64,000 nucleotides of DNA from an uncultured Dehalococcoidales bacterium (GCA_964437795.1 CAYTIC010000001.1:86864-150863), one strand, 5' to 3'; positions 36,966 to 60,665 are shown, counted from the first letter of the stretch. Program-made: numbers and translations. Notes: generated from the sequence alone by a model not told the origin.

Positions 36966-36993
36966 ATTAATCTCTCACCAGTTAAATTCTTAG

Positions 36994-37327: not shown

Positions 37328-37373
37328 CCTTCCAAGCAGTGTGTCGCGGGTTCGAATCCCGTCTCCCGCTCCA
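37328..37373 (+). repeat. displaced 3' fragment of tRNA-Gly(TCC); distal att-type repeat of island 2
   Basis: 45/46 nt identical to 27189-27234 (G27201 versus T37340). Confidence 0.85.
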
Positions 37374-37457
37374 ACAGTTTCTAAATCTGCCCTGTGCGAC
37401 AGATAATTTATGTCTGAACACCCTGACCGAAAAGCTTCCTCCAATATTTTCAATATA

Positions 37458-38923: not shown

Positions 38924-39424
38924 ATGAACACCCCTGAAGAAAAACAGAAACGCGAAAAGCCAGTACTTGACTTGCCGGACATAAACGAAGTGGCGGACAA
39001 GTTATTAGAACAGGGTAAAATATCGAATATGCAGGCTGCCCAGCTTAAAATGTGGTATTCAGCCATGCCTGATATAAATTCCGGCAGCGCAAAATTTGAA
39101 GCCTGGAAGAAAGCGCGGCCCGATATAGATGTACCGGGACTATTCACCCCCGGAGAAGGATCAAAGCCAATACTTGATTTGCCGAGCTTGAGTGAAATGG
39201 CGGAAAAGATGGCCAAAGATGGTGTAAAGCCTATCCTTGATATGCCGGACATGAACGAAGTGGCGGATAAGCTGTTTGAACAGGGCAAAATATCCAATAT
39301 GCAGGCTGCCCAGATCAAAATGTGGTATTCAGTCAAGCCGGATAAGAATGCGGGCCTGGCGAAATTTGAAGCCTGGAAGAAAGCGCATCCTGCTATAGAT
39401 ATTCCCGGCCTGTTCCCGGAGTAG
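38924..39424 (+). CDS. hypothetical protein built from an internally duplicated 63-aa unit
   Basis: Strong RBS TAGGAGGT. Residues 12-74 and 102-164 are near-identical (KP[VI]LD[LM]PD[IM]NEVADKL.EQGKISNMQAAQ.KMWYS...AKFEAWKKA.P.ID.PGLF), with a partial third copy at residues 81-101. Confidence 0.6.
   Translation: MNTPEEKQKREKPVLDLPDINEVADKLLEQGKISNMQAAQLKMWYSAMPDINSGSAKFEAWKKARPDIDVPGLFTPGEGSKPILDLPSLSEMAEKMAKDGVKPILDMPDMNEVADKLFEQGKISNMQAAQIKMWYSVKPDKNAGLAKFEAWKKAHPAIDIPGLFPE
38957..39415 (+). repeat. tandem intragenic duplication (two 189-nt units 270 nt apart plus a partial unit)
   Basis: The DNA of 38957-39145 and 39227-39415 aligns with high identity by eye (for example gaagtggcgga.aag, atatgcaggctgcccag, aaatttgaagcctggaagaaagcgc). 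Confidence 0.7.
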
Positions 39425-39504
39425 GCAAACTGACCCGGCAACTGTAGCGAAAATTAAGTCCACTGGATAGCCCAGCCATGGTTAATAATGGCCGGTTGCG
39501 AAAT

Positions 39505-39807
39505 TCATTCTCCCAGTGGTTTGCCGCTGATAAGGTAGAAAATCAGCGACGCAATCGTAAATAATACCGGTACACTCAGGACCGCAGCAATCACTATTAA
39601 AGCCACCAACCAAAAGCCCTTCGGTTTAAATCTCAGTATTACCCCTATTATGCCGAGGACGAGGCCTGCGATAAAGATAAGCAGGCCTATGATGTCCGTA
39701 TCTATACCAAAGTAATGATAGAGCGGAATGACCAGCAGGAATGTGACTATCCCTGCCGCCATTATTATCAGGGCCGCGGTTATCAGCTTTCCAAATCGCT
39801 TCACCAT
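39505..39807 (-). CDS. small integral membrane protein (3 TM)
   Basis: 100 aa, almost entirely hydrophobic helices. Confidence 0.5.
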   Translation of the reverse strand: MVKRFGKLITAALIIMAAGIVTFLLVIPLYHYFGIDTDIIGLLIFIAGLVLGIIGVILRFKPKGFWLVALIVIAAVLSVPVLFTIASLIFYLISGKPLGE

Positions 39808-39868
39808 ATCATCCTTCCTGTTATCTTTCTAATTACCTTCTTCCGCCTGTAACACGAAAACGGTATAT

Positions 39869-40489
39869 CTAATCAGGACGCAGCCCTTTCATGATAACGA
39901 TAAAGGCTTTTTCAGTTTCTTTGATCAGATCAAACCGGCCTTTGACCAGGCACCAATCGTAGATCACGCCACGAACACAACGGAGCATAATGCGCGTGAT
40001 ATCGTCCCTGCTCAAATCCGTACGCAGTTCTCCCCTGTCCTGCCCTTCCTCAACCAGCTTCTGAAGTATCTTGAATAAGGCCCTTTTTTCTGAGGCGATG
40101 GAGGCGGTTTTTTTATTCAGGTTTATCTGAGCACGATAGCTCACCTGGATAATGTCGATTCCCATGCCGTTGCTGTAATCGACGGCCTTCCTTCCCAACA
40201 GAAACAGCTTCTCCACTACGCTTTTGTGCGGGCCCAACTCAGCCGTCGCGTATTTGTCATATATTTGGTCAGCGACCAAAAAGAGATCTATTATGACCTG
40301 GTCTTTGGACTTGAAATGATCGTAGAAAGCGCCTTTGGAGACACCGGCCTTCTCGCAGATGTCATCCACGGTAACTTTATCGTATCCCTTCGAATAGAAA
40401 AGCTTCAACGCCGTGTTGTAGATCTTCTGGTGAGTGGCAATTGCCTGCTTCTTGCGGCTGTTTATCTCATTTCTAGTCATTACAAGCAA
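39869..40489 (-). CDS. TetR/AcrR-family transcriptional regulator
   Basis: IYNTALKLFYSKGYDKVTVDDICEKAGVSKGAFYDHFKSKDQV, the canonical TetR HTH. Confidence 0.85.
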   Translation of the reverse strand: MLVMTRNEINSRKKQAIATHQKIYNTALKLFYSKGYDKVTVDDICEKAGVSKGAFYDHFKSKDQVIIDLFLVADQIYDKYATAELGPHKSVVEKLFLLGRKAVDYSNGMGIDIIQVSYRAQINLNKKTASIASEKRALFKILQKLVEEGQDRGELRTDLSRDDITRIMLRCVRGVIYDWCLVKGRFDLIKETEKAFIVIMKGLRPD

Positions 40490-45138: not shown

Positions 45139-46284
45139 TCAGCCGGATGCGTTATCGACGATTTCAACTACATCCAGTATTTGAATTGAATCGCTCGCGC
45201 CCAGGGTGAGCACGGCGTCTTCAAACATCGTCATGCAATAGGGGCATGAAACGGCCAATACCTGTGCCCCGCTTTCCATCGCCTGCCTGACGCGCAGTTC
45301 GGCGAACCGCTCCTCTTTCTTCGATTCCAACCAGAGGCCGCCGGCGCAACCGCCGCAGCATAATGAATCTGCGTGATGGTCGGACATTTCTACCAGGTCC
45401 ACCCCCGGGATGCTGTGCAAAACATTGCGGGGCTCATCATAAATGCCCTGATACCTGCCCAGGCAGCAGGAATCGTGATAGGCAACCTTCTTTTGCGGGC
45501 CCTTGCCCAATTTAACGCTGCCCGCTTTTATCAGCTCATCCAAATACCGGACTATATGGATTACCTCGAAACCGCCGCCGAGCTCAGGGTATTCGTCCTT
45601 TAAAGTGTTGTAACAGTGCGGCGACCCTACCAATATCCTCTTGACGCCCGCAGACTTCAGTGTCTCTATGTTATTCGATGCCAGGCTGGTAAAAAGGCCC
45701 TCCTTGCCCGCCTTCCGTATGCTTTCCCCGCAGCAGGACAGGCCTTTATCGATTATGCCGAAATCCACGTTGGCCCTGCGCAGGACATTTATCATTGACA
45801 CGGCTGTTCTTCGGCACCTGACGTCATAAGCCTGATAGCAGCAAACATACATCAGCATGTCGGTATTTGTTGAATACGCAGCGACATTCAGGCCCCTTAA
45901 CCATTCAGTGCGCGCTTCGTCCGGCTCGCCCAGCGGATTGCCCACACCGGCCAGGTTGGAGGCCACCGTGCGCAGGGAGCGGGGTATCGCGCCCGCGCCT
46001 ACTTCAGAGATGACCCTTCTGAGCGACCTGATCATGCGGGGTATGTCCACGCCGCGCGGACAGGCCTGTGCGCACGATCTGCACCCCACACACTTCCATA
46101 TCTCCTCGTTACCGAAATCGATCAATCCCAGCTGGGCCTGATGCAGCAGGCTGCGAACACCCAGATGCCCGCCTATGTTCCACGGACATACAGCTGTGCA
46201 CAACCCGCACTGAAAACAGTGATCGAGGTCTGCGCCGCCCTGCTCCTTTATGGCATCAGTGATTTCCGGTGATATATCCACCAT
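45139..46284 (-). CDS. soluble HdrD-like (fused HdrC+HdrB) Fe-S/CCG-domain protein occupying the QmoC position
   Basis: 381 aa. CFQCGLCTAVCP and CVGCRSCAQACP, then two CCG-type Cys-rich regions (VCCYQ..SCCGES..PHC; DSCCLG..LCCGGCAGG..SCPYC). No hydrophobic segment. Confidence 0.7.
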   Translation of the reverse strand: MVDISPEITDAIKEQGGADLDHCFQCGLCTAVCPWNIGGHLGVRSLLHQAQLGLIDFGNEEIWKCVGCRSCAQACPRGVDIPRMIRSLRRVISEVGAGAIPRSLRTVASNLAGVGNPLGEPDEARTEWLRGLNVAAYSTNTDMLMYVCCYQAYDVRCRRTAVSMINVLRRANVDFGIIDKGLSCCGESIRKAGKEGLFTSLASNNIETLKSAGVKRILVGSPHCYNTLKDEYPELGGGFEVIHIVRYLDELIKAGSVKLGKGPQKKVAYHDSCCLGRYQGIYDEPRNVLHSIPGVDLVEMSDHHADSLCCGGCAGGLWLESKKEERFAELRVRQAMESGAQVLAVSCPYCMTMFEDAVLTLGASDSIQILDVVEIVDNASG

Positions 46285-46314: not shown

Positions 46315-48444
46315 TTACAGATCCTTATACGGGTTCGGCCCGATCTTCTCAATCCCGGTTAGAAACTCATCCAGAATGCCCGGCAGTGTGCCGTATTCCT
46401 CCACGGAAAGCTGCACTACACGCAGCCGCTCCGGCTCCAGCGCCAGCTTGTTAAGGGTATCCTGCATCTTTTGAATCCTGTCGTCGGCCAGCTCGCTGCC
46501 GGTTATGTTATGGCACTGATAGTCTCCACCGTATTTGCAGCCCACCATGATGATGCCGTCGAAACCGCTGGAGAGCGCATCGACGATCCAGACCATATTT
46601 ATCGATCCCAGGCACCTCACGGGTATGACCCTGATAAAGGGATTGAAGGCCATGCGCCCGGTACAGGCCATGTCCAGGGCGGGGTAAGCATCGTTTTCGC
46701 ACAAAAATGCTAGTATGCGCGGCTTGTCCTCTTCCGCCCCCGGCATCTGAATTGACTTGATCATTGATCCTATAATGTCAACCGAATAGTCGGCAAACGA
46801 AATAATCCTCTCAGGACACGCGCCCATACAGATGCCGCACCTCCTGCACCGCGTGGGATTGGGCAGCGGATTATACTTATCGTCCTCGTCATACATGCCG
46901 AAAGGGCACTCTTCAGTGCATCTCTTGCACTGGGTGCACCTGGCCATATAGAGGTCGGGGTAACTGGTATCGCCGGCCCTGGGATGCACTGACTCTCCCC
47001 TGGCAACCATTTCCACACATTGAATGGCCTTGACCACGGCGCCGTTTGCATCTTCACAGCTTGACAGGCTGTCTAAGGGTTGCCTGGCACAGCCGGCTGA
47101 GTAGACGCCTGTACGGCGTGTCTCATAGGGAAAACAGATAAAATGCGAATCCGGGAACCCGTATTTAAGCTCCGGCAATTCCGCGCCCTGCCTGTAGGCC
47201 AGGCTGAGCGCCGGCGGGGGTGACGGTTCAATGCCCGCAGCCAGGACCACCAGGTCGGCCTGTACAGTCACCTTCTCGCCCAAGAGAAGGTCCTGCATTT
47301 CAACCATAATGCCGTTTTCAGCGGCGGCCACTCCGGTTATCTCCGCCCTGGCCAGGTAAACAGACCCCGACTCCTGCGTATTTCGATAGAACTCCTCGTA
47401 CAGGGAAGGCGCGCGCATGTCCTTGTAGAAAATATAGGCCTTTGAATCGGCATTGCTCTTCGTTACGTAAACCGCCTGCTTGAGGGAGGTCAGGCAGCAG
47501 AAGGACGAGCAATACGGCAGATGGCTGTCGTCACGCTGCCCGGCGCACTGAATAAACGCCACGCTTTTTACAGGCTTGCCGTCCGACGGCCTTTTGATCA
47601 CGCCGTCGAAGGCCAATTGCTCCATTTGTACGTTGGTGATGATATCCGGGTGACTGCCGAAACCCAGGTGCGCCAGGCGTTCGGCATTATACGGCTGAAA
47701 TCCGGTGGCTTGAATAATGGAGCCCACCCTCAAAGATACGGCGCCGCTCGGACTCCTGAGAGAAACATCGAACATACCCGGCGAACCCTCGATCTTCTCG
47801 ACCTCCGCCGACTTGAATACCCTGATCAGCGGGTCGTTTTCCAGGGCGGCGGCCAGCGCTACAATCCCGGTGTCCTCCGGTTCCCGGTACGGGGGATGCT
47901 TTGGATATCCACGATATAGTTTCGTCATCCACCCGCCTAAAGAAGGGCTCTTTTCCACCAGGCACACCTCGTATCCGGCCCCGGCGGCGCCCAGCGCGGC
48001 GGTGATCCCAGTTATACCGCCCCCTATGACCAAAATAGTCTTGCTGATCTCGGGCAAATACGGTACCGCAGGAGATGTTTTGGCGATCCCGGCGAGGCCC
48101 ATCCTCAGGCAATCTTCCGCCATCATCTGCGTATCCGGATCGCCAGGCAGGTGGGACCAGGCCACCTGCTCCCTTAAATTCACCCTTTCCAGGATCACAG
48201 AACTATCGAAGGTGAAACATCCCTGTTTAACACGTGGCGAGCAGGCGCCTATCACCAGCCTGCAAGGACTGCCGGCAATGTCATCATCTATCGATAGCCG
48301 CCCATCTGCGCTGCACAGTGACGGATGGATCCGGCAAATGTCGGCTTTATATTCATTGACCGCCACTTCGCTCAATTTCTCGAGTGAAAGGGCCTCCCCG
48401 ATGCCGCACCCGCTGCACAAATATACGGCCAGTTTATTTGCCAT
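46315..48444 (-). CDS. qmoB: QmoB-like HdrA-family flavoprotein with C-terminal MvhD-like domain
   Basis: Start set at MANKLAVYLCSGCG. FAD fold ILVIGGGITGITAA, ferredoxin motifs CTQCKRCTEECP and CRRCGICMGACP, and the C-terminal ILAFLCENDAYPA...VRCLG...GCKYGGDYQCH (MvhD type). Confidence 0.75.
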   Translation of the reverse strand: MANKLAVYLCSGCGIGEALSLEKLSEVAVNEYKADICRIHPSLCSADGRLSIDDDIAGSPCRLVIGACSPRVKQGCFTFDSSVILERVNLREQVAWSHLPGDPDTQMMAEDCLRMGLAGIAKTSPAVPYLPEISKTILVIGGGITGITAALGAAGAGYEVCLVEKSPSLGGWMTKLYRGYPKHPPYREPEDTGIVALAAALENDPLIRVFKSAEVEKIEGSPGMFDVSLRSPSGAVSLRVGSIIQATGFQPYNAERLAHLGFGSHPDIITNVQMEQLAFDGVIKRPSDGKPVKSVAFIQCAGQRDDSHLPYCSSFCCLTSLKQAVYVTKSNADSKAYIFYKDMRAPSLYEEFYRNTQESGSVYLARAEITGVAAAENGIMVEMQDLLLGEKVTVQADLVVLAAGIEPSPPPALSLAYRQGAELPELKYGFPDSHFICFPYETRRTGVYSAGCARQPLDSLSSCEDANGAVVKAIQCVEMVARGESVHPRAGDTSYPDLYMARCTQCKRCTEECPFGMYDEDDKYNPLPNPTRCRRCGICMGACPERIISFADYSVDIIGSMIKSIQMPGAEEDKPRILAFLCENDAYPALDMACTGRMAFNPFIRVIPVRCLGSINMVWIVDALSSGFDGIIMVGCKYGGDYQCHNITGSELADDRIQKMQDTLNKLALEPERLRVVQLSVEEYGTLPGILDEFLTGIEKIGPNPYKDL

Positions 48445-49705
48445 TTGACCGCCCTTTCCTGACCGACCCAATAGCCTTCAAAACTGCGCCCGTCGCGTCT
48501 CTGACCGACGATCCCACGTCCATCGGCCTTTTCACGCATCCCGCGGCGTAAATACCCGCCAGGTCGGAGACCATAAATCCGCAGGAGTCTTTGCCGGGTC
48601 CGGCGGGCAGCCAGTCCGTCGCTGCAGGGACCATTCCCGTGGCCAGCACCACCATGTCCACCCTTTGCCTGACCATTTTTCCCTGCTCTGTATCCTCAGC
48701 TTCGACGAAAAGGTCGTTTGTTGCGGGGTCCTGCTTTATGCGTGATACCTTCCCGCGAAGGAACGACACCCCTTGCATATCCTGAATCCGACGGTAAAAA
48801 TCCTCCTGCGTACCCTGGGCCCGCAAGTCGATGTAATAGATGGCCACCCGGGCATCCGGATTGTGCTCCTTAATATAAGTTGCCTGCTTAAGCGAAGCCA
48901 TGCAGCAGACGCCCGAACAGTAGGACAGGTGGTTTACGTCCCGGGAGCCCGCACACTGCACGAATGCGATTGAGGATACCTCTTTTCCGTCCGACGGACG
49001 CACCAGGCGCCCGTCACGCAGCCCGGCGCCTGATGCCAGCCTCTCCATCATCATATTGGTGATTACATTGGGATAAACGCCGAAGCCGAGCCGGTTCAGC
49101 CGGGCTGCATCATAAGATTCCCAACCCGTGGTCACTATAATCGATCTGCAATTGACCGTGACCACCTGCTCTTCCATCTGCAGGTCGATAGCCCCGTAAC
49201 GGCAGGCGGAAACGCATTTTGCGCAATCGCTGCCCGTACAGGCATCTTTATCCACGGTATATGTCGGAGGATATGCCTGCACATGCGGCAGGTAAATAGC
49301 TTTAGTGTTGTCCCACCCGTAGTTGAAATCGTTCGGCCTTTGGACCGGGCAAACCGTTTCACATTCGCCGCAGGCCGTGCAATTATCGTTCACCATGCGC
49401 GGCAGCAGCCGGACCGATACCTTGAAGTCTCCCTCACTTCCCTCAACAGCCTCCACCATAGCCATGGTGAAAACCCTGATTCCCCGATTAACCTTGATCC
49501 GCTTGAAATTGAGCTCGAGGCCGCAGGCCGGGGGACATAGTTTGGGGAAATAGCGGCTCATCCTGACGGCCTTCCCTCCCAGGAAAGGCTCCTTCTCAAG
49601 CAGGATGATCTTGTAACCTATCTCGACCGCCTCAACCGCCGCGGCTATCCCGCTTACACCGCCGCCCACTACCAGGATATCGGTTGAAACAGCAGTCTGT
49701 TGCAT
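48434..49705 (-). CDS. qmoA: QmoA-like HdrA-family flavoprotein
   Basis: 423 aa. ILVVGGGVSGIAAA, CTACGECETVCP, FVQCAGSRD..SYCSGVCC. Confidence 0.75.
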   Translation of the reverse strand: MQQTAVSTDILVVGGGVSGIAAAVEAVEIGYKIILLEKEPFLGGKAVRMSRYFPKLCPPACGLELNFKRIKVNRGIRVFTMAMVEAVEGSEGDFKVSVRLLPRMVNDNCTACGECETVCPVQRPNDFNYGWDNTKAIYLPHVQAYPPTYTVDKDACTGSDCAKCVSACRYGAIDLQMEEQVVTVNCRSIIVTTGWESYDAARLNRLGFGVYPNVITNMMMERLASGAGLRDGRLVRPSDGKEVSSIAFVQCAGSRDVNHLSYCSGVCCMASLKQATYIKEHNPDARVAIYYIDLRAQGTQEDFYRRIQDMQGVSFLRGKVSRIKQDPATNDLFVEAEDTEQGKMVRQRVDMVVLATGMVPAATDWLPAGPGKDSCGFMVSDLAGIYAAGCVKRPMDVGSSVRDATGAVLKAIGSVRKGRSNGK

Positions 49706-49720: not shown

Positions 49721-51610
49721 TCAGCCGACCAATGGGATAACGTCCTTCTTAAATACCGACCATTTGCCGGAAGCGGGGTCCCACCTGCAATTGACGAAAC
49801 ACTTCCAGTTGCTGTCGTCCAGCCGGGGTACATCCGCCCGGAAATAGTAGCCGGGCCACCTGGTCTCTTCCCTGAAGAGCACCGAACGGATATGTGATTC
49901 GGCCTGCCACAGCCGGTGCTGGTTTTCCCAGCAGCGCATGAGCTCGTGGAGGTTTTCGGCCGCCAGTTTTTCCGCATCTTCGCGCAGGAAATCCAGCAAT
50001 TCAAGGCCCTTCTCCAACGAGAGCTTATTGGTCGTAAACTGGGTAGTTGCGCCCCCTGCGTACTCATCCATGATCTTCTGCAGCCGTACCATGAACTGCT
50101 TCGGCTTGAGATAATTTTCGCTGACATCCGGATTGTCGGTAAGTTTGCCGTACTGGTCAAACAGTTCAAGCGGTTTGAAAAGGCGTTTCTTAAGCGCTTC
50201 AACCTGCGCAGTATCGATGTTCGGCTGCTCCGGATGATCGACTATATAGGCGATGGATGCTTTAGCAGCGATCCTGCCTTCGCAATGCGAGCCGTCGGAG
50301 AACTTATGGCTGGATGCGCCGGACGCGTCGCCTGCGCAGAATATCCCTTTCACGGTGGCCATACGGTTATAACCCCAAAAATACTCTTTGGGTGACAGGT
50401 CTTCCGGTCCGCTGACCCATGCGCCCGAAGCGCCTGAATGCGAACCTATGAAATATGGTTCGCAGGCCTGTATTTCTGAGGGCTTTTCCTCGGGCTGCGT
50501 ATTGGTCCCCGCCCAGAGAATGGCCTGCGATATTGTCATATCCAGAAAATCTTCCCACGCTTCCGATTCGACCTCTTTCATGCGTTTTCGCCGTTCTTTT
50601 TCATCGCTGATGGCGGAGAGCATCCTGGCAATTGCTTCATCAGTTCGCATGTACATAGGGCCCTTGCCTTCATTTTGGTCCAGCATCATCAGGTAATTTC
50701 GCAGGTTGGCGGGGATGGGCTTGGACGATCCGTACGGCCCCCAGTTCTCCAGGTCTTTCTTGCGCTCCGACATGTAATCCTGGCCGAGCGCATTGGTAGC
50801 TATAGACTTGAAAAGAAGGAACCATGCGCCGACGGGCCCATAGGCGTCTTTGAAACGAACCGGGATAAAACGCACTTCCTGGCACGTCATCTCGCAGCCG
50901 CTCTTCAAAGTAAAATAGGCGCTTGAACCGCTGTTGAAGGGGGGATACCAGCTCCTTCCCTGCCCTTCACCTACCGAGCGGGGCCGGAATATGTGCACTG
51001 CACCGCCCATGGCCACCAGGACCGCTTTAGCCTTGAATATGTAGAACTTGTTCTCGCGTGTGCTGAAGCCGACAGCTCCTGCAACCCTGTCTCCATCGAT
51101 AAGCGGCTCTACTATGAATACCCGCTCATAGATATTATTTTCGCCAATAGTTGCCAGCGCGTTGCGGGCCGCCTCTGCAACAATGTTTTTATACGATTCA
51201 CCGTTGATCATGACCTGCCAGCCGCCCTCGAATACATAGTCGCCTTTATCGTCTTTCCAGATGGGAAGGCCCCACTTCTCGAAGAGGTGCACCGTGCTGT
51301 CCACGTGCCGCGCGATATCGTATACAAGGTCCTCGCGGGAGATGCCCATCAGGTCGTTCCTGACATAGCGCACGTAGTCTTCCGGGGTCTTGTCCCTGCT
51401 CTTCATGCCGACATACATATTGAGAGCGGAAAGCCCCTGTGCGACCGCGCCGCTGCGCTCGATGGCAGCCTTGTCGACCAGCGTCACCTTCAGGTTGTGC
51501 CTCTTCGCCCAGTAAGCGGCTTCGACCGCGGCGCCGCAGGCCGCCATGCCGCCGCCGATGATAAGCAGGTCGGTGTTTACTTCTACCGTCTGTATTTCTG
51601 ACATGAACAA
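49721..51610 (-). CDS. aprA: adenylylsulfate (APS) reductase alpha subunit
   Basis: 629 aa. DLLIIGGGMAACGAAVEA FAD fold, with length and sequence typical of AprA, directly after aprB. The true start may be the ATG at 51604 (MSEIQTV). Confidence 0.85.
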   Translation of the reverse strand: MFMSEIQTVEVNTDLLIIGGGMAACGAAVEAAYWAKRHNLKVTLVDKAAIERSGAVAQGLSALNMYVGMKSRDKTPEDYVRYVRNDLMGISREDLVYDIARHVDSTVHLFEKWGLPIWKDDKGDYVFEGGWQVMINGESYKNIVAEAARNALATIGENNIYERVFIVEPLIDGDRVAGAVGFSTRENKFYIFKAKAVLVAMGGAVHIFRPRSVGEGQGRSWYPPFNSGSSAYFTLKSGCEMTCQEVRFIPVRFKDAYGPVGAWFLLFKSIATNALGQDYMSERKKDLENWGPYGSSKPIPANLRNYLMMLDQNEGKGPMYMRTDEAIARMLSAISDEKERRKRMKEVESEAWEDFLDMTISQAILWAGTNTQPEEKPSEIQACEPYFIGSHSGASGAWVSGPEDLSPKEYFWGYNRMATVKGIFCAGDASGASSHKFSDGSHCEGRIAAKASIAYIVDHPEQPNIDTAQVEALKKRLFKPLELFDQYGKLTDNPDVSENYLKPKQFMVRLQKIMDEYAGGATTQFTTNKLSLEKGLELLDFLREDAEKLAAENLHELMRCWENQHRLWQAESHIRSVLFREETRWPGYYFRADVPRLDDSNWKCFVNCRWDPASGKWSVFKKDVIPLVG

Positions 51611-51623
51611 TATCCCCCGGATT

Positions 51624-52076
51624 TCAGTCCTTTTTTAACGTCGGTAATTTTTCGATGCCCAGTGATTCTGGCTCAGTGAACAACAGCGGGCTTTTCAATT
51701 CGTCAGCCTCAGGCGCTGTATTAAAGCCCCCGTCCGGAACCGCCGAGCCCTCGGGAGTGGTGCGGGTGCGAAACTTAAAGCGCTTGATGGCGCCGTTTCT
51801 GAATTTCACGGTCCAGATGATGCTGTCGCTGCCTCTCAGAGGTGTAACACTCGCTCCAAGGGGCACGAAATCCGCGTATCCCCTGACGGCTATAGCCTGC
51901 TGAGGGCATATCTTTACGCAGCTATAGCATTCCCAGCACATGGAAGGGTCGCGGTTGAATGCCTTCTGCGTCTCTCCATTCAGGGCCATCAGGTCGTTGG
52001 GACAAATGTACTGGCAGGCTGTCTTATCCTTGCCTTTGCAGCCGTCACATTTACTGATGATTACAAAACTCGGCAT
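51624..52076 (-). CDS. aprB: adenylylsulfate (APS) reductase beta subunit
   Basis: 150 aa. Hallmark N-terminus MPSFVIISKCDGCKG, CQYICPNDLM, CWECYSCVKICPQ. Confidence 0.85.
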   Translation of the reverse strand: MPSFVIISKCDGCKGKDKTACQYICPNDLMALNGETQKAFNRDPSMCWECYSCVKICPQQAIAVRGYADFVPLGASVTPLRGSDSIIWTVKFRNGAIKRFKFRTRTTPEGSAVPDGGFNTAPEADELKSPLLFTEPESLGIEKLPTLKKD

Positions 52077-52091: not shown

Positions 52092-52916
52092 TTACATATA
52101 GCCCAGGCCGCGCAAGCGTTTCATCATCTTTTCCTTGTCCTGCCGCCGGCCCGCTCTCTCCGTCGTGTGTTCAAGGTCCTGCTCCCAGGCAGGAACGCCC
52201 GGGGCCGCTATGGCGCTGGTGGTCTTTGCTCCCAGCGATCGATAGCCTTTTTCGTACAGTATGCAATAGGGTATTTTAAATACCTGATACGTGTTCCATA
52301 GCTCTCTCTCCGAGAAGTGCAGTATGGGCTTAATGCGCGTATGCTGGGGGATCAGGTAGGCCGCTTCTTTTACCTCGAAATAGTCGTCCTCGGCACGGGC
52401 GTTCTGCTCGTCCCTCCGCAAACCCTGGAAGATCGCCTTGACCCCGTTCTGTTCGATATACACGTTGAACATGACCGTTTTCATCAGGTGATTGCCGGTA
52501 TATGATTCAGCCTCGAAGGGAAATGTATCTTCCTTGTAGTCTATGCGCTTGAGTTCAGCCTGGTTTCTCTCGTTTAAATCCTTGACCTTGACGATGTTAT
52601 TCAGCTTGCCGCCGGCGGCCTTGATAACATCATCGTTGCGCATCCATGTCAGATCCAGCTTCCATTCCGCCGCATAGCGGTCCATGAAATCGTGTATCTC
52701 GTCGAAGGTATCGAACTCGTCTATCGTCATGACTTTGGGGACCTTTATTTTGTCCTCCTGGCAGACCTGGCGAATAATCCACAGCGCAAGCGTGCTGTCC
52801 TTGCCACCCGTCCAGGTGATAGCAAGATCATCCAGCTTAAACTTGCCGAATGACTCCCTGACTATTGCCTTCGACTTGTCGATCAGTCCCGCGCATTCTT
52901 TTTCCATACTGGCCAT
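52092..52916 (-). CDS. CysD-like PP-loop enzyme (PAPS-reductase/sulfate-adenylyltransferase-subunit-2 family)
   Basis: 274 aa. PP-loop ITWTGGKDST, GLRRDE, and a CysD-type C-terminus TTERAGRRQDKEKMMKRLRGLGYM* (compare E. coli CysD ...[26 protein letters not shown], from memory). Confidence 0.65.
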   Translation of the reverse strand: MASMEKECAGLIDKSKAIVRESFGKFKLDDLAITWTGGKDSTLALWIIRQVCQEDKIKVPKVMTIDEFDTFDEIHDFMDRYAAEWKLDLTWMRNDDVIKAAGGKLNNIVKVKDLNERNQAELKRIDYKEDTFPFEAESYTGNHLMKTVMFNVYIEQNGVKAIFQGLRRDEQNARAEDDYFEVKEAAYLIPQHTRIKPILHFSERELWNTYQVFKIPYCILYEKGYRSLGAKTTSAIAAPGVPAWEQDLEHTTERAGRRQDKEKMMKRLRGLGYM

Positions 52917-52932
52917 TATCGGTCCCCCTTTT

Positions 52933-54138
52933 TTACTTTATCCATCTTTTTATCCTTGGTTTGAGCCTGGATTGCAGCCTTACTGTCTCCTTTGAAGACT
53001 GTGCAATATCGTGCAACTCACCCGGGTCGTCCTTGAGGTCATACAGCTCCCAGCGGTCCGGTTCCGCCCTGTAGATCAGCTTCATGTCGCCTTCCCGGCA
53101 GAAATACACATCCTTATTGATGTCGCCGCCTTTGACGCTTTTATTGTCGATGGCCTCACCGAAGGCGCCCTTTTCAACATATGCCCCCACGGGCAGCAGT
53201 GATTGTCCCTGGAAAGACGCCGCCGGATCGATACCGAAAAGGTGGAGAATAGTGGGCGGAATGTCTATGCTGCTGACCAGGCTGGAGCATACACCGCTTG
53301 AATCCGCCCCGTATATCAGCAACGGGACATCGATCAATTCCGCATACAGCTTGTCGTCGTGCGACAGCCCGCCGTGCTCGTTAAACTCATCCCCGTGGTC
53401 GCTGGTCATGATGACGGTGGTGGAATCGAGTATATGCAAATCCTCAAGCGATTTAAATAACGACTGTACGTAAGAATCCACCTCGCGGACGTGCACGTCA
53501 TACAGCCGTTTCAGCAGTGTTACCCTGGCGGGATCCGAGACGTCCCTCTTGAGCAGAGTATCCTCAAACAGCGCATACATCTCGTCCTGGCTGATCTTAA
53601 TTTCGGGGTCTACCATGTCTACATAGCTTCTTTCCGGCATATAAGGCTCATGCACGTCCATGTAATGAAGCCATAAAAAGAACGGAGCATGGTCTTTCTT
53701 CTTTACATAGGACGAAAGCCACTGCACTACCTTGTCATTGATCGTGTAACCCCGCACATATGACAGGCGTTCATCTTCGAGATCGTCGTCCAGGGAGTCA
53801 TAGAACACGTCCCATCCCCGGTCCCAGCCCAGCACGGAGCTGCAATAGGGATTGGAATGGAACCCGGCGGTGTATATGCCGGCTTTTTGCAGTACCTCCG
53901 ATACTATGGAGCGCCGGGGCGCCAAACCTTCGGGCTTACCGTAATCCAGGTAGTACCCCGAGCACAATATGGCGGGAAACGACGCCTGGGTATAAGGACC
54001 GGCGCTCTGGCTCCCGGTAAATACTATGCTGCGGTCTTTGAGGGAGTCGACGAACGGGGTTAATCCCCTGGTATTACCATACAGCCCGAATACATCCTTC
54101 CGGGTTGCATCCAGTGTAATCAAGACAACGTTTTTCAT
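52933..54138 (-). CDS. sulfatase/alkaline-phosphatase-superfamily enzyme without a canonical formylglycine motif
   Basis: 401 aa. NVVLITLDATRKD metal site, MTSDHGDEFNEHG, and a WELYDLKDDPGE tail typical of PF00884. The nucleophile region reads SAGPYTQASFPAILCSG instead of C/S-x-P-x-R-xxxx-TG. Confidence 0.65.
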   Translation of the reverse strand: MKNVVLITLDATRKDVFGLYGNTRGLTPFVDSLKDRSIVFTGSQSAGPYTQASFPAILCSGYYLDYGKPEGLAPRRSIVSEVLQKAGIYTAGFHSNPYCSSVLGWDRGWDVFYDSLDDDLEDERLSYVRGYTINDKVVQWLSSYVKKKDHAPFFLWLHYMDVHEPYMPERSYVDMVDPEIKISQDEMYALFEDTLLKRDVSDPARVTLLKRLYDVHVREVDSYVQSLFKSLEDLHILDSTTVIMTSDHGDEFNEHGGLSHDDKLYAELIDVPLLIYGADSSGVCSSLVSSIDIPPTILHLFGIDPAASFQGQSLLPVGAYVEKGAFGEAIDNKSVKGGDINKDVYFCREGDMKLIYRAEPDRWELYDLKDDPGELHDIAQSSKETVRLQSRLKPRIKRWIK

Positions 54139-54168
54139 AGTGATAATTGATTGAAAAAGGGGCCGGAC

Positions 54169-55497
54169 TTAATATCCCAGCCGTTTCATCCTTGTTTCCA
54201 TCTTCTTCTTTTTATCGGCGCTGCTTGCTGCCGGACGTGCTGCCTGTGTTGCAGGGGCAGACTGGTCGGTGGCTATTTCGCTGGAGGCCTTGCCCTTCAC
54301 CAGCGTCCCGGCCGTGCTGCCGGAAATCGGCCTTGCCTGGGGGTTGAACGCCTCCGGCCCGTACAGCCTGTTCCACATGTCGAGTTTTTCCGAGTCAAGC
54401 TTTCTGCCCTGCAGTCCCGGGTAGTCCGGATCATAGCGGTGGCAGCGGAATGTGCAGTTGCTCAGGCCGTAAGGTGAAAGGGTATCCCTGTGGTTATAGA
54501 AAGGCACTATATATTCCCAGACGATTTCGCCTGTGGTGGTAACTTCGAAGAAACGCCCCATCCCGCCTTCGCACACCAGCGTATTGCCGTTGGGCAGCCG
54601 TTCACAGCCGCCGATATAGGTCGTATTGAAATCTACGGGGTTCTCTTCCCTGAACTCCCACTCGACCTCGTTGGTTTTGGGGTTCACTTCAACGACGCGG
54701 CTGCCGTCCGGCGGGAAGTAATCAACGTTGTACCTGTTGTTATTGAGCACCAGTATGTTGCCGTTATCCAGCAGCGTGGGGTTGTGCGGCATAGAGAGGA
54801 AGCCTTTTCCCCAGCGCCACTTGAAATCGCCGGAACTCCTGTCGATGATAAAAAGGTTGTCGCAGCCGAAAGAACATAACATGATGTCGCCGTTGGGCAA
54901 TTCCTCGAGTGAATTGAGGCCCACCCATGCCAGGCGCATCTGCAGCGGCGCGAAACAATCGAGCTCGAGGTCGAAGTGCTGATAACCCAGCCATTCCCAG
55001 GCTATTTTGCCCTGCGGGGTGATCTCCTGTATTACGTTGCCGTGAAGAGGTATGTCAATGCCGAGGATGCCTTTAGGAGACACGCCGCCCTGCACTTTGG
55101 CGGCTATTTCTTCCGGAATCGGGACGTACTTCATGATAAGCGTATTGCCGTTCTTGCTGCGCTTGCGATCATGGGCGTCCATGTTTTCATCCTCGTATTT
55201 CCAGACCACATTGCCGTCCCAGTCCAGTTCAACGACGCGTTTTGCCACAGTCGGTATCGATGAAGGAGGCGCTCCCACGTCATCCAGGGCACACAGGATA
55301 TTCCCGTTGGGAAGCAGGTCCGCATGCAGGCGCACCCACCCCGGCAGTTTCCAGCGGTGAACGAAACGTCCCTGCATATCGATCAGCCAGGTATTGCCCG
55401 GTACCTGTGTCATTGGGCTGAACAACGTGAAGCCGGGATATGCTTTGTGTGGTTTATACTCGGTAACCGATTGTAATGCTCTTCTTGCGGATGGCAT
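54169..55497 (-). CDS. arylsulfotransferase (ASST)-like beta-propeller protein, cytoplasmic, with a low-complexity linker and a CysD-like C-terminal tail
   Basis: 442 aa with no signal peptide. Repeated blade motifs LPNGNIL, KNGNTLI, LPNGDIML, LDNGNILVLNN and LPNGNTLV recall the Arylsulfotran family. The C-terminal 60 aa are A/S/P/Q-rich and end KKKKMETRMKRLGY*. Confidence 0.55.
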   Translation of the reverse strand: MPSARRALQSVTEYKPHKAYPGFTLFSPMTQVPGNTWLIDMQGRFVHRWKLPGWVRLHADLLPNGNILCALDDVGAPPSSIPTVAKRVVELDWDGNVVWKYEDENMDAHDRKRSKNGNTLIMKYVPIPEEIAAKVQGGVSPKGILGIDIPLHGNVIQEITPQGKIAWEWLGYQHFDLELDCFAPLQMRLAWVGLNSLEELPNGDIMLCSFGCDNLFIIDRSSGDFKWRWGKGFLSMPHNPTLLDNGNILVLNNNRYNVDYFPPDGSRVVEVNPKTNEVEWEFREENPVDFNTTYIGGCERLPNGNTLVCEGGMGRFFEVTTTGEIVWEYIVPFYNHRDTLSPYGLSNCTFRCHRYDPDYPGLQGRKLDSEKLDMWNRLYGPEAFNPQARPISGSTAGTLVKGKASSEIATDQSAPATQAARPAASSADKKKKMETRMKRLGY

Positions 55498-56335: not shown

Positions 56336-56531
56336 TCTGCTTTCCTCCTGCCGTTCAACGACAGCATAATACCATGGTATTAGTGGCGTAAACAATATGT
56401 CAAGTAATATGTATGACGTTACAGGTTATATTGACTTACATTCAAATTCTCAATCTAACCCCCTATTGGTATTGCCAATCCCGCCATTAAGGTTTAGATT
56501 TTATTGTAAATCGGGGAGACAGGAGGGACAT

Positions 56532-57821
56532 TTGAGCGAAATAAAGCAGAAGTATAAAGTGGGCGGCAGTGGAGCGGTCTTCGTACTCATCATTCTATTC
56601 CTCCTTTATATCCTGAACTTCGCCGACCGGGCCATAGTGGCAATCGTGCTGCAGCCGATGAAGGAAGCGCTGCAGTTGACCGATGCCCAGGCGGGGGCGA
56701 TGCAATCCATTTTCCTGCTGGGGGCAGGTCTGCTGATGATTCCCGGCGCCATCTTTGTAGAAAGGTGGAGCCGCCGCAAGATGCTGGGCATTATGGCCCT
56801 TATCTGGAGCGTGGCCACGTTTGCCACCGGCCTGGGCACAAAATTCTGGCATATCATGTCGGCCCGGTTCGTGGTCGGCATCGGTGAAGCGGGCTATAAC
56901 CCCGGCGGCACCGCCTGGCTGTCCCTGGCTTTTTCCAAGAAGGTCCGGGGCAGGATACTTGGTTTATTCCAATCGGCGGCCCAGGTCGGTATGGCTGTAG
57001 GACTGATAATAGGAGGCCTGATAGTCACGCAGACCGGCGATTGGCGCATGCCGTTTTACATTTTTGCCATACCTGGAATTATATTGGGCATAATCACCTT
57101 CTTTCTGCCCGACTATGCAACGGTAAGGGAAAAAGGCGAAGCCGTTTTCAACAAGAAGTTTTTCTCCGAGGTGCTCGGCCTCTTCAAGATTAAGACGTAT
57201 TCCCTGAACATCATAGCCCAGTGCCTGTTTGCCTTTATCAGCATGACCATTCTGGGCTGGCTGCCCGCCCTGCTCATGAGGGCCTACAATATAGACGCGT
57301 TTCAGGCAGGCACAATTAACGGCCTGACAAGCCTGATAGTCCTGATCGGCGCGCCCCTGGGCGGCTTCCTGGGTGACAGGTGGCAGGCAAAGAAACACGG
57401 GGGCAGAGCTTACTTTATGGTAGTCGCCATGCTTGCTTATGCGATTGCGGCGACACTCATGATACTGTCTACTAATTATTCCCTGACAATCTACATCGTT
57501 ATGGCTTCGCTCGCTTCGTTTTGCTCTGCGCTGGCATTGCCGGGCCTTTTCGCCATCTGGACGGATGTACTGTCGCCCAAACACCGCACCACCGGTATCG
57601 GCATGGGCACCATGATTTCACTTGTCCTGGGCGCTGTGCCGGGACCGTTGTTTGTCGGTGCGGTATCCGATGCCCTGGGCGGAGGGGTCTTCGGCCTGAG
57701 AAGCGCATTCCTGCTGATGATGCCTGCGGCGTTTATAGCCACGATAATGTACTTCGTTATGTCCAGGTACTATCCCGCAGACAGTGCTAACATAAGCGAC
57801 GACGTCCTGGCAGAAAAGTAA
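56532..57821 (+). CDS. major facilitator superfamily transporter (anion:cation-symporter-like)
   Basis: Start set at the TTG after AGGAGGG. LNFADRAIVAIVLQPMKEALQLTDAQAG, and about 12 TM helices. Confidence 0.7.
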   Translation: MSEIKQKYKVGGSGAVFVLIILFLLYILNFADRAIVAIVLQPMKEALQLTDAQAGAMQSIFLLGAGLLMIPGAIFVERWSRRKMLGIMALIWSVATFATGLGTKFWHIMSARFVVGIGEAGYNPGGTAWLSLAFSKKVRGRILGLFQSAAQVGMAVGLIIGGLIVTQTGDWRMPFYIFAIPGIILGIITFFLPDYATVREKGEAVFNKKFFSEVLGLFKIKTYSLNIIAQCLFAFISMTILGWLPALLMRAYNIDAFQAGTINGLTSLIVLIGAPLGGFLGDRWQAKKHGGRAYFMVVAMLAYAIAATLMILSTNYSLTIYIVMASLASFCSALALPGLFAIWTDVLSPKHRTTGIGMGTMISLVLGAVPGPLFVGAVSDALGGGVFGLRSAFLLMMPAAFIATIMYFVMSRYYPADSANISDDVLAEK

Positions 57822-57858
57822 CGGACAGCGGTACCGATGCGGCCCGGGTGAATAACCC

Positions 57859-59520
57859 TTAGCCGGACTTCAACATCTCCCGCAGTTCACGTTTCAATAT
57901 CTTGCCGATGGCGCTGGTGGGCAGCGCATCCATAAATACGATTATCTTGGGCACCTTGTAAGGGGCTTCGCGCTGCCTGATGTAATCGCGTATCCTCTCC
58001 TTTTCAGACTCGGACTTCTCGATGCCCTCCTTGAGCACGATGGCGGAGGCCACCATCTCGTTGCCCGGCCGGTTGGGATCGGGAACGCCGATGGAGGCAG
58101 CCAGCGAGATATCGGGGTGCTCGATGATTATGTCATCAAGCTCGCGGGTGAATACCTTGTAGCCCGAGACGATTACCATGTCCTTGAGGCGGTCGACGAT
58201 ATAGATATAGCCTTCCTCGTCCATACGGCAGACGTCGCCGGTGTAGAACCACCCGTCTTTGAGGGCATTGGCCGTCTCCTCCGGCTTATTATGGTAACCC
58301 TTCATCACCTGCGGACCGCGCACCACCAGCTCGCCGGGCTCTCCCACGGGTACCGGCTCTTTGGTGGCGGGATCGACGATCTTGACCTCGGTATCGCCGA
58401 CGGGTAAACCGACCGAGCCGAACTTTCGCTTGCCGTAGCGGGGGTTGGCCGCGATGAGGGGACAGGTCTCGGTCATGCCGTAAACCTCGCTGAACTTGTC
58501 CTTGCCCACGATGTCCTCGAATCCCTTGAGATACTCAACGGGGAAGGGCGCCGCCCCGGCGATGCAGCCCCAGATGCCCGAGAAATCCAGCTCGCGGAAC
58601 TCAGGCTTCTTCATAAGTTCGAGATATATGGTAGGCACGGCCGTGAGCACGGTGGGCTTGTATTCCTTGATGCTCTTGATGATAAAGTCGTAATCGCGCG
58701 GGTTGGGCAGGGCAACCTGCGGCGTAGCCCACACCAGGCAGAACAGCCCGAGGAACAGGCCTGCCTGGTGAAAGAGCGGGAAGGGGCACAGTATGCGCTC
58801 CTGTCCCTTGACTGCGTCAACGTAGTTGCCCCACTGGATCATGTGGCGGACCACGTTGTTGTGCGTCAGCACAGCCCCCTTGGAGGGCCCGGTCGTGCCG
58901 CCGGTGTATTGCATCAGGAACGGCTCTTCGCCTTTGACCCTGATATTCACGGGATCGGCCGGGTACTCCTGCATGAGGTCGGTGAACCGGAATACCGGGA
59001 TGGGGGATTCGGGCAATTTGAGCGGCTGCGCATTGGGCAGAAAATCGCTGAAGCCCGTCAGCGCCATGCCCTTCAGTTTGACCTTGTCGATGACCTGGCT
59101 GATATTGCCCCAGAACACATCGAGCGCCAGCAGGAACTTGGCGCCCGAATCGTTGAGCTGGTATTCAAGCTCCCTGGGCGTCAGCAGCGGGCTGATGCCG
59201 GTAAGCACACAGCCTGCCCTGGAGATGGCCGGTATGGCGATATAGTAAGCGGGCAGGTTGAGCGAATACACCCCCACCACATCGCCCGGTTTCAATCCCT
59301 GCCTGATTAGAAAAGCGGCAAAACGGTTGGACAGCTCGTCGACCTGCCTGAAAGTTATCTCTTTCCCCATGTAATTCACCGCGGTGATATCCGGCACCTC
59401 GTTAACAGCTTCCAGGAAAAGGTCTGTGAACATCTTGTTCTCGGGGTAGTCGAAGTGGGCTTTCACGTGCGGGTCGAAGGACTTCTGCCAGAATTTACCG
59501 GCATAAGGATCACTCACCAT
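57859..59520 (-). CDS. AMP-dependent long-chain acyl-CoA synthetase/ligase
   Basis: 553 aa. LMQYTGGTTGPSKG, VYGMTE, WFYTGD, GKILKRELR. Confidence 0.8.
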   Translation of the reverse strand: MVSDPYAGKFWQKSFDPHVKAHFDYPENKMFTDLFLEAVNEVPDITAVNYMGKEITFRQVDELSNRFAAFLIRQGLKPGDVVGVYSLNLPAYYIAIPAISRAGCVLTGISPLLTPRELEYQLNDSGAKFLLALDVFWGNISQVIDKVKLKGMALTGFSDFLPNAQPLKLPESPIPVFRFTDLMQEYPADPVNIRVKGEEPFLMQYTGGTTGPSKGAVLTHNNVVRHMIQWGNYVDAVKGQERILCPFPLFHQAGLFLGLFCLVWATPQVALPNPRDYDFIIKSIKEYKPTVLTAVPTIYLELMKKPEFRELDFSGIWGCIAGAAPFPVEYLKGFEDIVGKDKFSEVYGMTETCPLIAANPRYGKRKFGSVGLPVGDTEVKIVDPATKEPVPVGEPGELVVRGPQVMKGYHNKPEETANALKDGWFYTGDVCRMDEEGYIYIVDRLKDMVIVSGYKVFTRELDDIIIEHPDISLAASIGVPDPNRPGNEMVASAIVLKEGIEKSESEKERIRDYIRQREAPYKVPKIIVFMDALPTSAIGKILKRELREMLKSG

Positions 59521-59668
59521 GCTGCAACCTCCTCAAACTATAAATCTGCCAGGATTTCTCTGTTTGTGCCCATCCAGTTTATCAAGGTTCTCTTATACAG
59601 TAAACATCAGCAGCCTTTGAAAAGGGGGTAAGGGTTTGCTATCATTCAAACCGCACTTGTAAAACCAT

Positions 59669-59899
59669 ATGGACCTGATAAAGACCCTCAGCAATGTCCT
59701 CGGCGTGATCTGCATCATTATCGGCGTTTTTCTGATACCGCTGAGCATCTGGTTTATTAAGCCGGCCATTAAAAACAAGGACAGGGTGTCCCTTGTCGTG
59801 GCGATCATTATCCTGGCCCTGTCAGCGGCCTGCTTCGTCGGGGCGTACATCATGTTTACAACCGGGCTGATTAAAATGGCCCCGACGCGGCTATACTGA
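59669..59899 (+). CDS. small membrane protein (2 TM), hypothetical
   Basis: 76 aa with two clear hydrophobic helices. No obvious RBS, so it is tentative. The antisense ORF 59593..59985 looks less protein-like. Confidence 0.35.
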   Translation: MDLIKTLSNVLGVICIIIGVFLIPLSIWFIKPAIKNKDRVSLVVAIIILALSAACFVGAYIMFTTGLIKMAPTRLY

Positions 59900-59906
59900 A
59901 ACTTCT

Positions 59907-60665
59907 TTAATAGACTGCGCCGCCATCCAGGAATATGGGGTGCCCCGATATGTAGCCGCCTTCGTCGGAGCACAGGAAAACACAAAGGTTCCCCACGTCA
60001 GCCGGCTGACAGATCCGTCCGAACGGCAGATTCCTGGCCAGTTCTTTCACTTCCATCCCCATTACGCCTTTGATCAGTCGTGCGCCCATATCGGTCTCCA
60101 CCAGGCCGCAGGCGATGGTGTTCACCCTGATATTGTGGCTTACCTCTTCCTTGGCCAGGCAGGAGGACAAGGCGTTGAGCCCTGCCTTGGCTACCGCATA
60201 GGGAGAATGCCCCGCCATGCAGCTGAAAGGGCTCACCGAGGATATGTTGATGATATCGCCGCGCTTCTGTTTCCTCAGTGCGGGCAGGGCTTCTTTAATG
60301 AAATAGAAGGCGCCCATCACGTGAATTTTGAAAAGCCGCTCCATCTCCTCCACTTCGGTATCGGCCACAAACCTCCCGCGTGAAGCTATGCCTGCATTGT
60401 TGACCAGTATGTCGATCTTACCGAACGTGTCGATTGTTTTGGCCACAACGGCCTTAACCTGTGCATAGTCGGTTACGTCGGCCTGTATCGACAGCGCCCG
60501 CCGTCCCAGTGCAACGATCTCCCCGTCAGTCGCTTTTGCCGCATCGGCATCGCGCCGGTAGTTGTACGCAATATCAGCGCCTTCCCCGGCTAAAGCGAGC
60601 GCTATACCTTTACCGATACCCCTGCCGCCGCCGGTAACCAGGGCTACCTTTCCTGATAATTTCAA
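59907..60665 (-). CDS. FabG-like short-chain dehydrogenase/reductase
   Basis: VALVTGGGRGIGKGIA, NNAG, YAVAK. Confidence 0.8.
   Translation of the reverse strand: MKLSGKVALVTGGGRGIGKGIALALAGEGADIAYNYRRDADAAKATDGEIVALGRRALSIQADVTDYAQVKAVVAKTIDTFGKIDILVNNAGIASRGRFVADTEVEEMERLFKIHVMGAFYFIKEALPALRKQKRGDIINISSVSPFSCMAGHSPYAVAKAGLNALSSCLAKEEVSHNIRVNTIACGLVETDMGARLIKGVMGMEVKELARNLPFGRICQPADVGNLCVFLCSDEGGYISGHPIFLDGGAVY

Follow-up and report, generated by a model that had tools for sequence, protein, structure and literature searches.

The 64,000-nucleotide stretch of DNA analysed here (the window; uncultured Dehalococcoidales bacterium, GCA_964437795.1 CAYTIC010000001.1:86864-150863) contains one minus-strand operon that encodes, in this order, an ASST-like (arylsulfotransferase-like) protein, a sulfatase-like protein, a CysD-like protein, the adenosine 5'-phosphosulfate (APS) reductase subunits AprB and AprA, and QmoA, QmoB and QmoC. 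The subject of the present analysis is the C-terminal tail that the ASST-like and the CysD-like protein have in common: judged by sequence, they are two copies of the same conserved module, which consists of a short amphipathic helix that closes with an invariant Leu-Gly-Tyr. The features concerned are the following.

55497..54169, minus strand: ASST-like protein, 442 amino acids, stop codon at 54169-54171 (open reading frame (ORF) translation)
54358..55497, minus strand: six-bladed beta-propeller of the ASST-like protein, residues 1-380 (Pfam match, predicted fold)
54214..54357, minus strand: linker of the ASST-like protein, flexible and rich in Ala, Ser, Pro and Gln, residues ~381-428 (low predicted local distance difference test score, pLDDT)
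54172..54213, minus strand: C-terminal tail of the ASST-like protein, K429-Y442 (KKKKMETRMKRLGY; translation, conservation, predicted helix)
52933..54138, minus strand: sulfatase-like protein of the alkaline-phosphatase superfamily, 401 amino acids (PF00884, 8.5e-41)
52092..52916, minus strand: CysD-like PP-loop protein of the PAPS_reduct fold, 274 amino acids (PF01507, 6.4e-24)
52095..52160, minus strand: C-terminal arm of the CysD-like protein, E253-M274, composed of the anchor ERAGRRQDKEK and the tail MMKRLRGLGYM (translation, homologs)

The CysD-like protein terminates in ...TTERAGRRQDKEKMMKRLRGLGYM and the ASST-like protein in ...NPQARPISGSTAGTLVKGKASSEIATDQSAPATQAARPAASSADKKKKMETRMKRLGY; both ends, as read in the initial annotation, were confirmed by ORF translation and at the DNA level. 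Counted from the tyrosine (position 0), they share the register hydrophobic(-9)-x-x-R(-6)-[LM](-5)-x-x-L(-2)-G(-1)-Y(0), which is occupied by M433, R436, M437, L440, G441 and Y442 in the ASST-like protein and by M264, R267, L268, L271, G272 and Y273 (followed by M274) in the CysD-like protein; the consensus of the module is [VM]-x-x-R-[LM]-x-x-L-G-Y, with 0-4 further residues behind the tyrosine. The proposed likeness of the two tails held up for the terminal Gly-Tyr, not for the literal MKRL string, which is located at -8 to -5 in the CysD-like protein versus -5 to -2 in the ASST-like protein and is, thus, three residues out of register. These are the only two proteins of the window with the strict motif. 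The basic ...GYF end that the initial annotation gave for Escherichia coli CysD proved correct on sequence look-up; this related ...QGYF terminus has neither the R-L register nor L(-2). The CysD-like protein combines the CysD-type traits of an SGGKDS-type PP-loop (TGGKDS, residues 36-41, invariant among the homologs) and a basic GY[FM] end (...LGYM). Upstream of the ASST-like tail, the linker contains a semi-conserved R-P-A-A-S element at -21 to -17 from the tyrosine (54229-54243, minus strand); other clades with long linkers (P0017-P0063) possess a second element, [KR]-P-S-[VL]-[AG], often inside YEESKPSVAxP, with the same fixed spacing (-21 to -17) to the terminal tyrosine.

Alignment of orthologs revealed that the tail is retained in both families, whereas the length of the linker is variable. 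All 120 best homologs of the CysD-like protein (77-96% identical) end in ...ERAGRRQDKEqMMxRLRxLGYM, and a search of 50%-identity representatives recovered ERxGRxxxKExxMxxLRxLGY[MFW] throughout this PAPS_reduct branch. A GY end is present in 84 of the 120 best homologs of the ASST-like protein (42-90% identical), with arginine at -6 and leucine at -2 in 81 of these 84 sequences each and Gly and Tyr in every one; the post-propeller extension of the tail-bearing homologs comprises 26-91 residues. According to a neighbour-joining tree calculated from the propeller only, the tail is spread over the entire ASST-like tree with scattered losses. The initial annotation had considered such a tail unreported for ASST-family proteins: this agrees with our literature searches, in which no description of it on ASST-like or alkaline-phosphatase-type enzymes was found, but the feature is not a rarity, as the above-mentioned 84 homologs carry it. 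That the 3' end of the CysD-like gene was recently duplicated, as DNA, onto the ASST-like gene was rejected as the origin of the tail: codon usage differs, no DNA similarity beyond that imposed by the peptide was apparent (comparison by eye only), and the ASST-like tree shows the tail to be old.

The motif is highly specific. In 31,888 stop-to-stop frames (window and 80 loci), the strict form was matched 21 times, by 13 ASST-like, five CysD-like and three NPP-like proteins (for the latter, see below), and never outside these three families. A 12-column position matrix trained on the NPP-like tails alone assigned 15.0 bits to the ASST-like and 20.7 bits to the CysD-like tail of the window; the C-termini of 4,621 unrelated ORFs reached a mean of -27.2 bits (standard deviation 7.7) and a maximum of 6.3 bits, a value exceeded by 80 of the 120 ASST-like and 113 of the 120 CysD-like homologs. 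In this genome, Lys/Arg-rich ...GY ends are uncommon, so that the compositional coincidence envisaged in the initial annotation was not borne out.

Two further protein groups carry the module. The third carrier is represented by NPP-type proteins of ~490 amino acids (PF01663, type I phosphodiesterase/NPP, alkaline-phosphatase superfamily), in 105 of whose 120 best homologs LGY is either terminal or followed by up to four residues; the logo of these tails, [ED]-K-V-R-S-R-L-x-x-L-G-Y, nearly matches that of the ASST-like proteins, although the folds are unrelated. The fourth carrier consists of sulfatase paralogs ending in ...RLRALGYVD or ...RLRDLGYIQ, the genes of which directly follow the CysD-like gene. 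With a relaxed pattern, 84 CysD-like, 41 ASST-like and seven NPP-like proteins as well as four sulfatase paralogs were detected in the window and 160 loci. Because the tail is conserved at the C-termini of several folds, behind linkers of variable length and within the same gene neighbourhoods, it is, by comparison of the sequences, a portable peptide as had been supposed, located on at least four unrelated folds (PP-loop CysD-like, ASST-like propeller, NPP-type and sulfatase paralogs).

Similar termini were seen in two MarR-family regulators encoded in loci of the sulfatase-like/CysD-like cassette described below, ...MEDRLELLGY (L099:10210-10683, plus strand) and ...KITYLGYEE (L105:940-1434, minus strand). 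Of all background ORFs, the former alone attained a distinctly positive score for the tail (6.3 bits), either by chance or as a tail-carrying regulator. At L127:8940-9290, at L146:10852-11130 and in 17 further loci, the CysD-like gene is immediately followed by one for a protein of ~95 amino acids, in which two transmembrane helices were predicted by eye; next in line is mostly a gene for a TauE-family exporter. This small protein matches no Pfam family, and its internal ...ITDL[IL]GYE... recalls the tail. The MarR-like ...LLGY and ...YLGYEE ends and the internal DL[IL]GYE were rejected as further carriers, being too few or too weak.

The ASST-like protein belongs to the ASST family by both Pfam score (PF14269, 1.2e-12, 48.3 bits versus a gathering score of 27; PF05935, 3.4e-11, 43.2 versus 24.2) and its six-bladed propeller resembling E. 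coli ASST (EcASST) and Cpz4: the AlphaFold2 model (mean pLDDT 90; >90 over most of residues 1-380) matched Cpz4 (9KF4/9KF6; 9KF4 with E = 2e-19 and a template modelling score of 0.60) and EcASST (3ETS/4P04, E ~1e-12). Among 106 sequences, H109 is invariant and H47 and H238 are nearly so; these histidines are candidates for the catalytic and transiently sulfated residue, which is His436 in EcASST. The propeller is followed by a linker of low confidence (block-mean pLDDT of 57 and 49 at residues 391-410) and a predicted tail helix (residues 427-439, pLDDT 70-77). No propeller column was found that separates tail-bearing from tail-less ASST-like proteins, which is a weak argument against a dedicated docking site in cis; a site specific to tail-bearing propellers was rejected on this ground.

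Among the ASST-like homologs, double-propeller proteins of 760-789 amino acids occur, of which one (L009:10001-12370) retains ...RKRLDSLGY and the P0008-P0015 group is without tail. In tandem arrays of ASST-like genes (L103:2774-7591; L094:5152-7558; L127:989-3395), tail-bearing and tail-less paralogs alternate, which may reflect hetero-oligomers or a division of labour.

The core of the CysD-like protein was modelled with confidence, but residues 221-274, including a helix (252-270) that ends in LGYM, exhibited block-mean pLDDT values of 51-59; this low positional confidence suggests that the C-terminal arm is mobile. Its fold matches comprise FAD synthase/FMNAT, APS/PAPS reductases (PAPS, 3'-phosphoadenosine 5'-phosphosulfate), CysD (1ZUN) and TtuA. 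The protein scores below the cut-offs of the curated CysD families (NCBIfam TIGR02039/PRK05253; 47.8 bits versus 396.6 and 74.8 versus 195) and far below those of the NCBIfam CysH/APS-reductase families. In a profile search of PDB sequences, its ...EHTTERAGRRQ aligned with ...EYAGERSGRFQ of the moss APS reductase APR-B (4BWV); since the ERxGR anchor aligns, the tail is, as far as the alignment tells, located at the position of the ECGLH catalytic arm of APS/PAPS reductases.

The sulfatase-like protein encoded between the two tail-bearing proteins has no tail itself and ends in ...RLKPRIKRWIK. The C/S-x-P-x-R formylglycine motif is absent in this protein and its 55 orthologs, in which a threonine at the formylglycine position (GPYTQASFP) and DHGDEFNEHGGLSHD are conserved; the metal-ligand motifs DxxR and DHG...H are intact. 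Because of the threonine in place of the canonical motif, the protein is not a canonical sulfatase and probably acts as a transferase with a Thr nucleophile or as an enzyme of phosphodiesterase type. Its gene is an almost constant neighbour of the CysD-like gene, which it directly precedes in 70 loci (with an overlap of 4 nt in one example, L103). Moreover, at least 15 natural fusions of 640-850 amino acids combine a sulfatase-like or NPP-like N-terminal part with a CysD-like domain that keeps the LGY[MF] end (P0248, P0259, P0284, P0286, P0288, P0291, P0295, P0299, P0304, P0310, P0313, P0316, P0352, P0355 and P0378). By the Rosetta-stone argument, these fusions indicate that the alkaline-phosphatase-type and the PP-loop enzyme work together; on such genomic grounds, the sulfatase-like/CysD-like core is regarded as a functional unit. 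No description of this cassette was found in the literature searches.

The ATP sulfurylase gene sat precedes the sulfatase-like/CysD-like pair in 42 loci (cassette loci L092-L158), an arrangement both widespread and conserved; TauE-family exporters, TRAP transporters, the small two-transmembrane protein and LuxR regulators are recurrent neighbours. The occurrence of the tail in other proteins is associated with the sulfatase-like/CysD-like pair: of 20 CysD-like loci for which 8 kb or more are available upstream, 18 encode a second tail-bearing protein. In an independent ASST-centred genome sample, presence of the tail was associated with presence of the cassette (5 and 6 in the first row of the table, 4 and 65 in the second; odds ratio 13.5, p = 0.0018); of the six exceptions, four are contigs of 3.8-7.1 kb. 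Likewise, a Sulfatase+PAPS_reduct pair adjoins all four inspected tail-bearing ASST-like genes and neither of two tail-less ones; these four loci display three gene orders and no Sat or Apr genes nearby, and the tail is kept.

The operon of the window continues downstream of the CysD-like gene with Apr and Qmo genes, each present in one copy in the 64-kb window.

52076..51624, minus strand: AprB, 3' of the CysD-like gene in the operon (domain matches)
51610..49721, minus strand: AprA (APS-reductase_C and FAD_binding_2 matches among the Apr/Qmo genes)
49705..48434, minus strand: QmoA
48471..46315, minus strand: QmoB
46284..45139, minus strand: QmoC

This order (ASST-like/sulfatase-like/CysD-like/AprBA/QmoABC) is a minority arrangement that recurs in a Dehalococcoidia metagenome-assembled genome (MAG; L001) and in metagenome contigs (L081-L084), of which L081 shares 92% DNA identity with the window over 12.5 kb; the ASST-like gene occupies here the position of Sat in the Sat/sulfatase-like/CysD-like cassette. 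AprBA or Qmo, which the initial annotation had put forward as a shared partner surface, were discarded as general receptor of the tail, because Apr genes are seldom nearby although the tail is kept (six of 80 CysD-like-centred loci and none of the four tail-bearing ASST-like loci). Sat is an unlikely receptor, as the window-type operon is without Sat and still has the tail. A canonical CysDN assignment of the CysD-like protein was dismissed as well: its neighbours are the sulfatase-like gene and AprB, neither Sat nor CysN is present in the 64-kb window, and a tblastn search with E. coli CysN detected no CysN next to the cassette in ~170 loci (sole weak GTPase match in L077). No shell-protein family is among the recurrent cassette neighbours, and targeting of a compartment by the tail was rejected for this reason.

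The surroundings of the cassettes (L162-L167; window 56397-60665) contain many TRAP, TctABC or MFS importers and genes of beta-oxidation/acyl-CoA metabolism (AMP-binding ligase, acyl-CoA dehydrogenase, thiolase, short-chain dehydrogenase/reductase), which together suggest a catabolism of sulfated organic acids. The G+C content of the window drops to 0.43-0.47 at 4001-8000 and 36001-40000, compared with ~0.55 elsewhere.

The reading that we prefer, with a probability of about 0.5, is that of a portable plug, by which the tail of an accessory enzyme would insert its terminal tyrosine into a site of the sulfatase-like/CysD-like core that the tails share. The LGY-ended helix would be the native working end of a CysD-type mobile arm; this end-piece alone would have been placed, via a disordered leash of ~10-70 residues, on accessory enzymes of cytoplasmic sulfate-ester metabolism (ASST-like propellers, NPP-like and sulfatase-like alkaline-phosphatase enzymes). 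The copied tail would plug into the site within the core that is normally taken by the CysD-like protein's own arm and, thus, would tether the ASST-like enzyme to the core beside the APS-handling enzymes (Sat elsewhere, AprBA-Qmo in the window). We infer this binding in trans, the nature of the receptor and the role of the tyrosine from the conservation and specificity of the motif, the matching logos, the neighbourhood association, the fused or adjacent core, the predicted leash, the ERxGR alignment, the lack of a propeller column that tracks the tail and the analogy to TtuA.

Several observations weigh against the plug. The 1ZUN structure models 204 of 325 CysD residues, and the site of a CysD-type tail is seen in no solved structure. 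A subclade of NPP-like proteins ending in ...RLxxLGYLG (L170-L172) has no PAPS_reduct gene within 8 kb; its clusters contain Sat, sulfatases of the canonical CxPxR type and an NHL/ASST-like propeller of another kind. Two tail-bearing ASST-like genes are without cassette, within 10 kb on either side (L012) or in ~3 kb upstream and 10 kb downstream (L011); adjacency to a CysD-like gene is therefore not obligatory for the tail. Finally, ASST-like proteins encoded beside a CysD-like gene but without a sulfatase-like gene are tail-less (L016:7674-11125; L022:9307-12769; L167:1275-3531), which points to the sulfatase-like rather than the CysD-like protein as a possible receptor; judged from this distribution, the sulfatase-like protein may be the partner that takes up the tail.

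The strongest competitor of the plug, possible although clearly less probable, is a covalent swinging arm, in which the phenol of the terminal tyrosine is sulfated or adenylylated and shuttles the group between active sites (from aryl sulfate via the ASST histidine to a tail Tyr-O-SO3, onward to the sulfatase-like/CysD-like core and to or from APS). It would extend docking and not exclude it. The Gly-Tyr is invariant in every family, the leash is predicted to be long and flexible, the tail carriers have aryl-sulfate-handling folds (arylsulfotransferase-like, arylsulfatase-like, NPP), and the cassette is linked to Sat or AprBA, both APS enzymes. In the CysD-like protein, the tail replaces (according to the alignment) the ECGLH arm, whose cysteine accepts the sulfuryl group of APS or PAPS. 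ASST-type, PAPS-independent enzymes sulfate tyrosine and Tyr-containing peptides and proteins in a ping-pong reaction via sulfo-His, and for most of them neither the natural acceptor nor the physiological role is known (PMC13426309). On the other hand, up to four residues can follow the tyrosine (LGYM, LGYLG, LGYVD), so that chemistry at a free C-terminus is not required; the canonical TGGKDS suggests ATP-dependent adenylyl transfer, not a CysH-type sulfuryl capture; and thermodynamics would disfavour the formation of APS from the sulfate ester of a tyrosine. Moreover, we know of no sulfo- or AMP-tyrosine on E. coli CysD despite its ...GYF end. A full relay, in which an aryl or alkyl sulfate ester would deliver its sulfuryl group via sulfo-His and a sulfo-Tyr on the leash to a Thr-type sulfatase-like/CysD-like core that combines it with AMP to APS (or the reverse), is still more speculative and appears improbable. 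If it were true, the relay of the window would supply dissimilatory reduction with APS derived from organosulfates, without ATP being spent on sulfate activation, Sat-linked cassettes could gain ATP from sulfate esters, and the tethered phenol would represent a regenerable acceptor for a cytoplasmic ping-pong sulfotransferase; a tyrosine proven to be a sulfuryl carrier would make the system categorically new.

There is a slim chance that the tail is a membrane- or transporter-targeting element, a basic amphipathic helix like those of MinD and FtsA that would hold the soluble enzymes near TRAP/MFS importers, TauE and the membrane-bound Qmo complex. The predicted leash followed by a basic amphipathic helix at the extreme C-terminus, the common helical face of V/M(-9), L(-5) and L(-2), and the recurrence of TRAP, TctABC, TauE and the small two-transmembrane protein nearby are consistent with such a role. 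The hydrophobic face, however, includes 3-4 residues only, and R(-6), L(-2), Gly and Tyr are invariant across bacteria and at least one archaeal MAG, whereas lipid-binding helices conserve amphipathicity and not sequence; in the CysD-like family, the segment runs straight on from the catalytic ERxGR motif. To be doubted to the same degree is a function solely in cis, with the tail being a lid, pseudo-substrate or oligomerisation element on its own domain and the likeness resulting from similar active-site chemistry. The homologous CysH/APR arm acts in cis, the pLDDT of the ASST-like tail helix is moderate (70-77), and the NPP-like ...LGYLG proteins are without CysD-like neighbour. Three or four unrelated folds would, however, each need a site for one 10-residue consensus, propeller residues do not co-vary with the presence of the tail, the tight genomic association of ASST-like tails with the cassette would be left unexplained, and tail-less paralogs alternate with tail-bearing ones in the tandem arrays. 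Chance or compositional likeness of two basic C-termini, with which the MKRL match out of register would agree, is practically negligible and refuted by the conservation data, i.e. the restriction of the strict motif to three families, the distance of both tails of the window from the background maximum, and the persistence of the motif across 42-90% identity in the ASST-like family.

The handling of sulfate esters in the cytoplasm of anaerobes from sulfate-poor sediments is poorly understood. The tail ties three enzyme families, unconnected until now, to the strongly conserved pair of sulfatase-like and CysD-like proteins, which occurs (as annotated) in Chloroflexota, Thermodesulfobacteriota, Atribacterota and Heimdallarchaeota; its ~10 residues and single tyrosine offer a mutable handle for complex formation and for a protein-to-protein passage of sulfuryl groups to or from APS. 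In addition, the tail hints at what the conserved but so far unexplained ...GY[FM] terminus of CysD-type proteins may do.

Among known systems, the CysH/APR reductases (2GOY, 2OQ2, 4BWV) resemble the CysD-like protein in fold, in the ERxGR anchor before the arm and in the flexible C-terminal segment. Their arm closes over the bound nucleotide-sulfate in cis, and its ECGLH cysteine reportedly attacks the sulfate of bound APS or PAPS; the CysD-like arm, in contrast, is without cysteine and ends in L-G-Y-M after a longer helix, its PP-loop is the canonical TGGKDS and not degenerate, and the CysH arm, unlike the LGY tail, is not known from other proteins. CysD of the CysDN ATP sulfurylase has the PAPS_reduct fold, the PP-loop and the basic ...GY[FM] end in common with the CysD-like protein but is partnered by CysN instead of the sulfatase-like protein. 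The aryl sulfotransferases of Eubacterium A-44, Clostridium innocuum and others are of ASST type, as is the fold of the ASST-like protein (only 20% identical to Cpz4); they are located in the periplasm or secreted, and their substrates are free, with no tethered tyrosine described, whereas in the ASST-like protein of the window no hydrophobic signal peptide is apparent (judged by eye).

A parallel to an insertion in trans is TtuA, a PP-loop enzyme from the structural superfamily to which the CysD-like protein also belongs: in its complex with TtuB (5GHA), the flexible C-terminal tail of TtuB enters the TtuA active site. TtuB is, however, ubiquitin-like and ends in Gly-Gly with a thiocarboxylate, whereas the LGY tail terminates full-size enzymes with Gly-Tyr and would be inserted in trans by analogy. 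The peptides for cargo loading of encapsulins and microcompartments likewise combine a short conserved terminus with a poorly conserved linker on several unrelated enzymes per cluster; the LGY motif differs from them as the native end of a catalytic partner in clusters with no shell gene. In kind, the tail resembles these portable terminal peptides and mobile arms, i.e. the CysH arm, the TtuB tail and the cargo-loading peptides.

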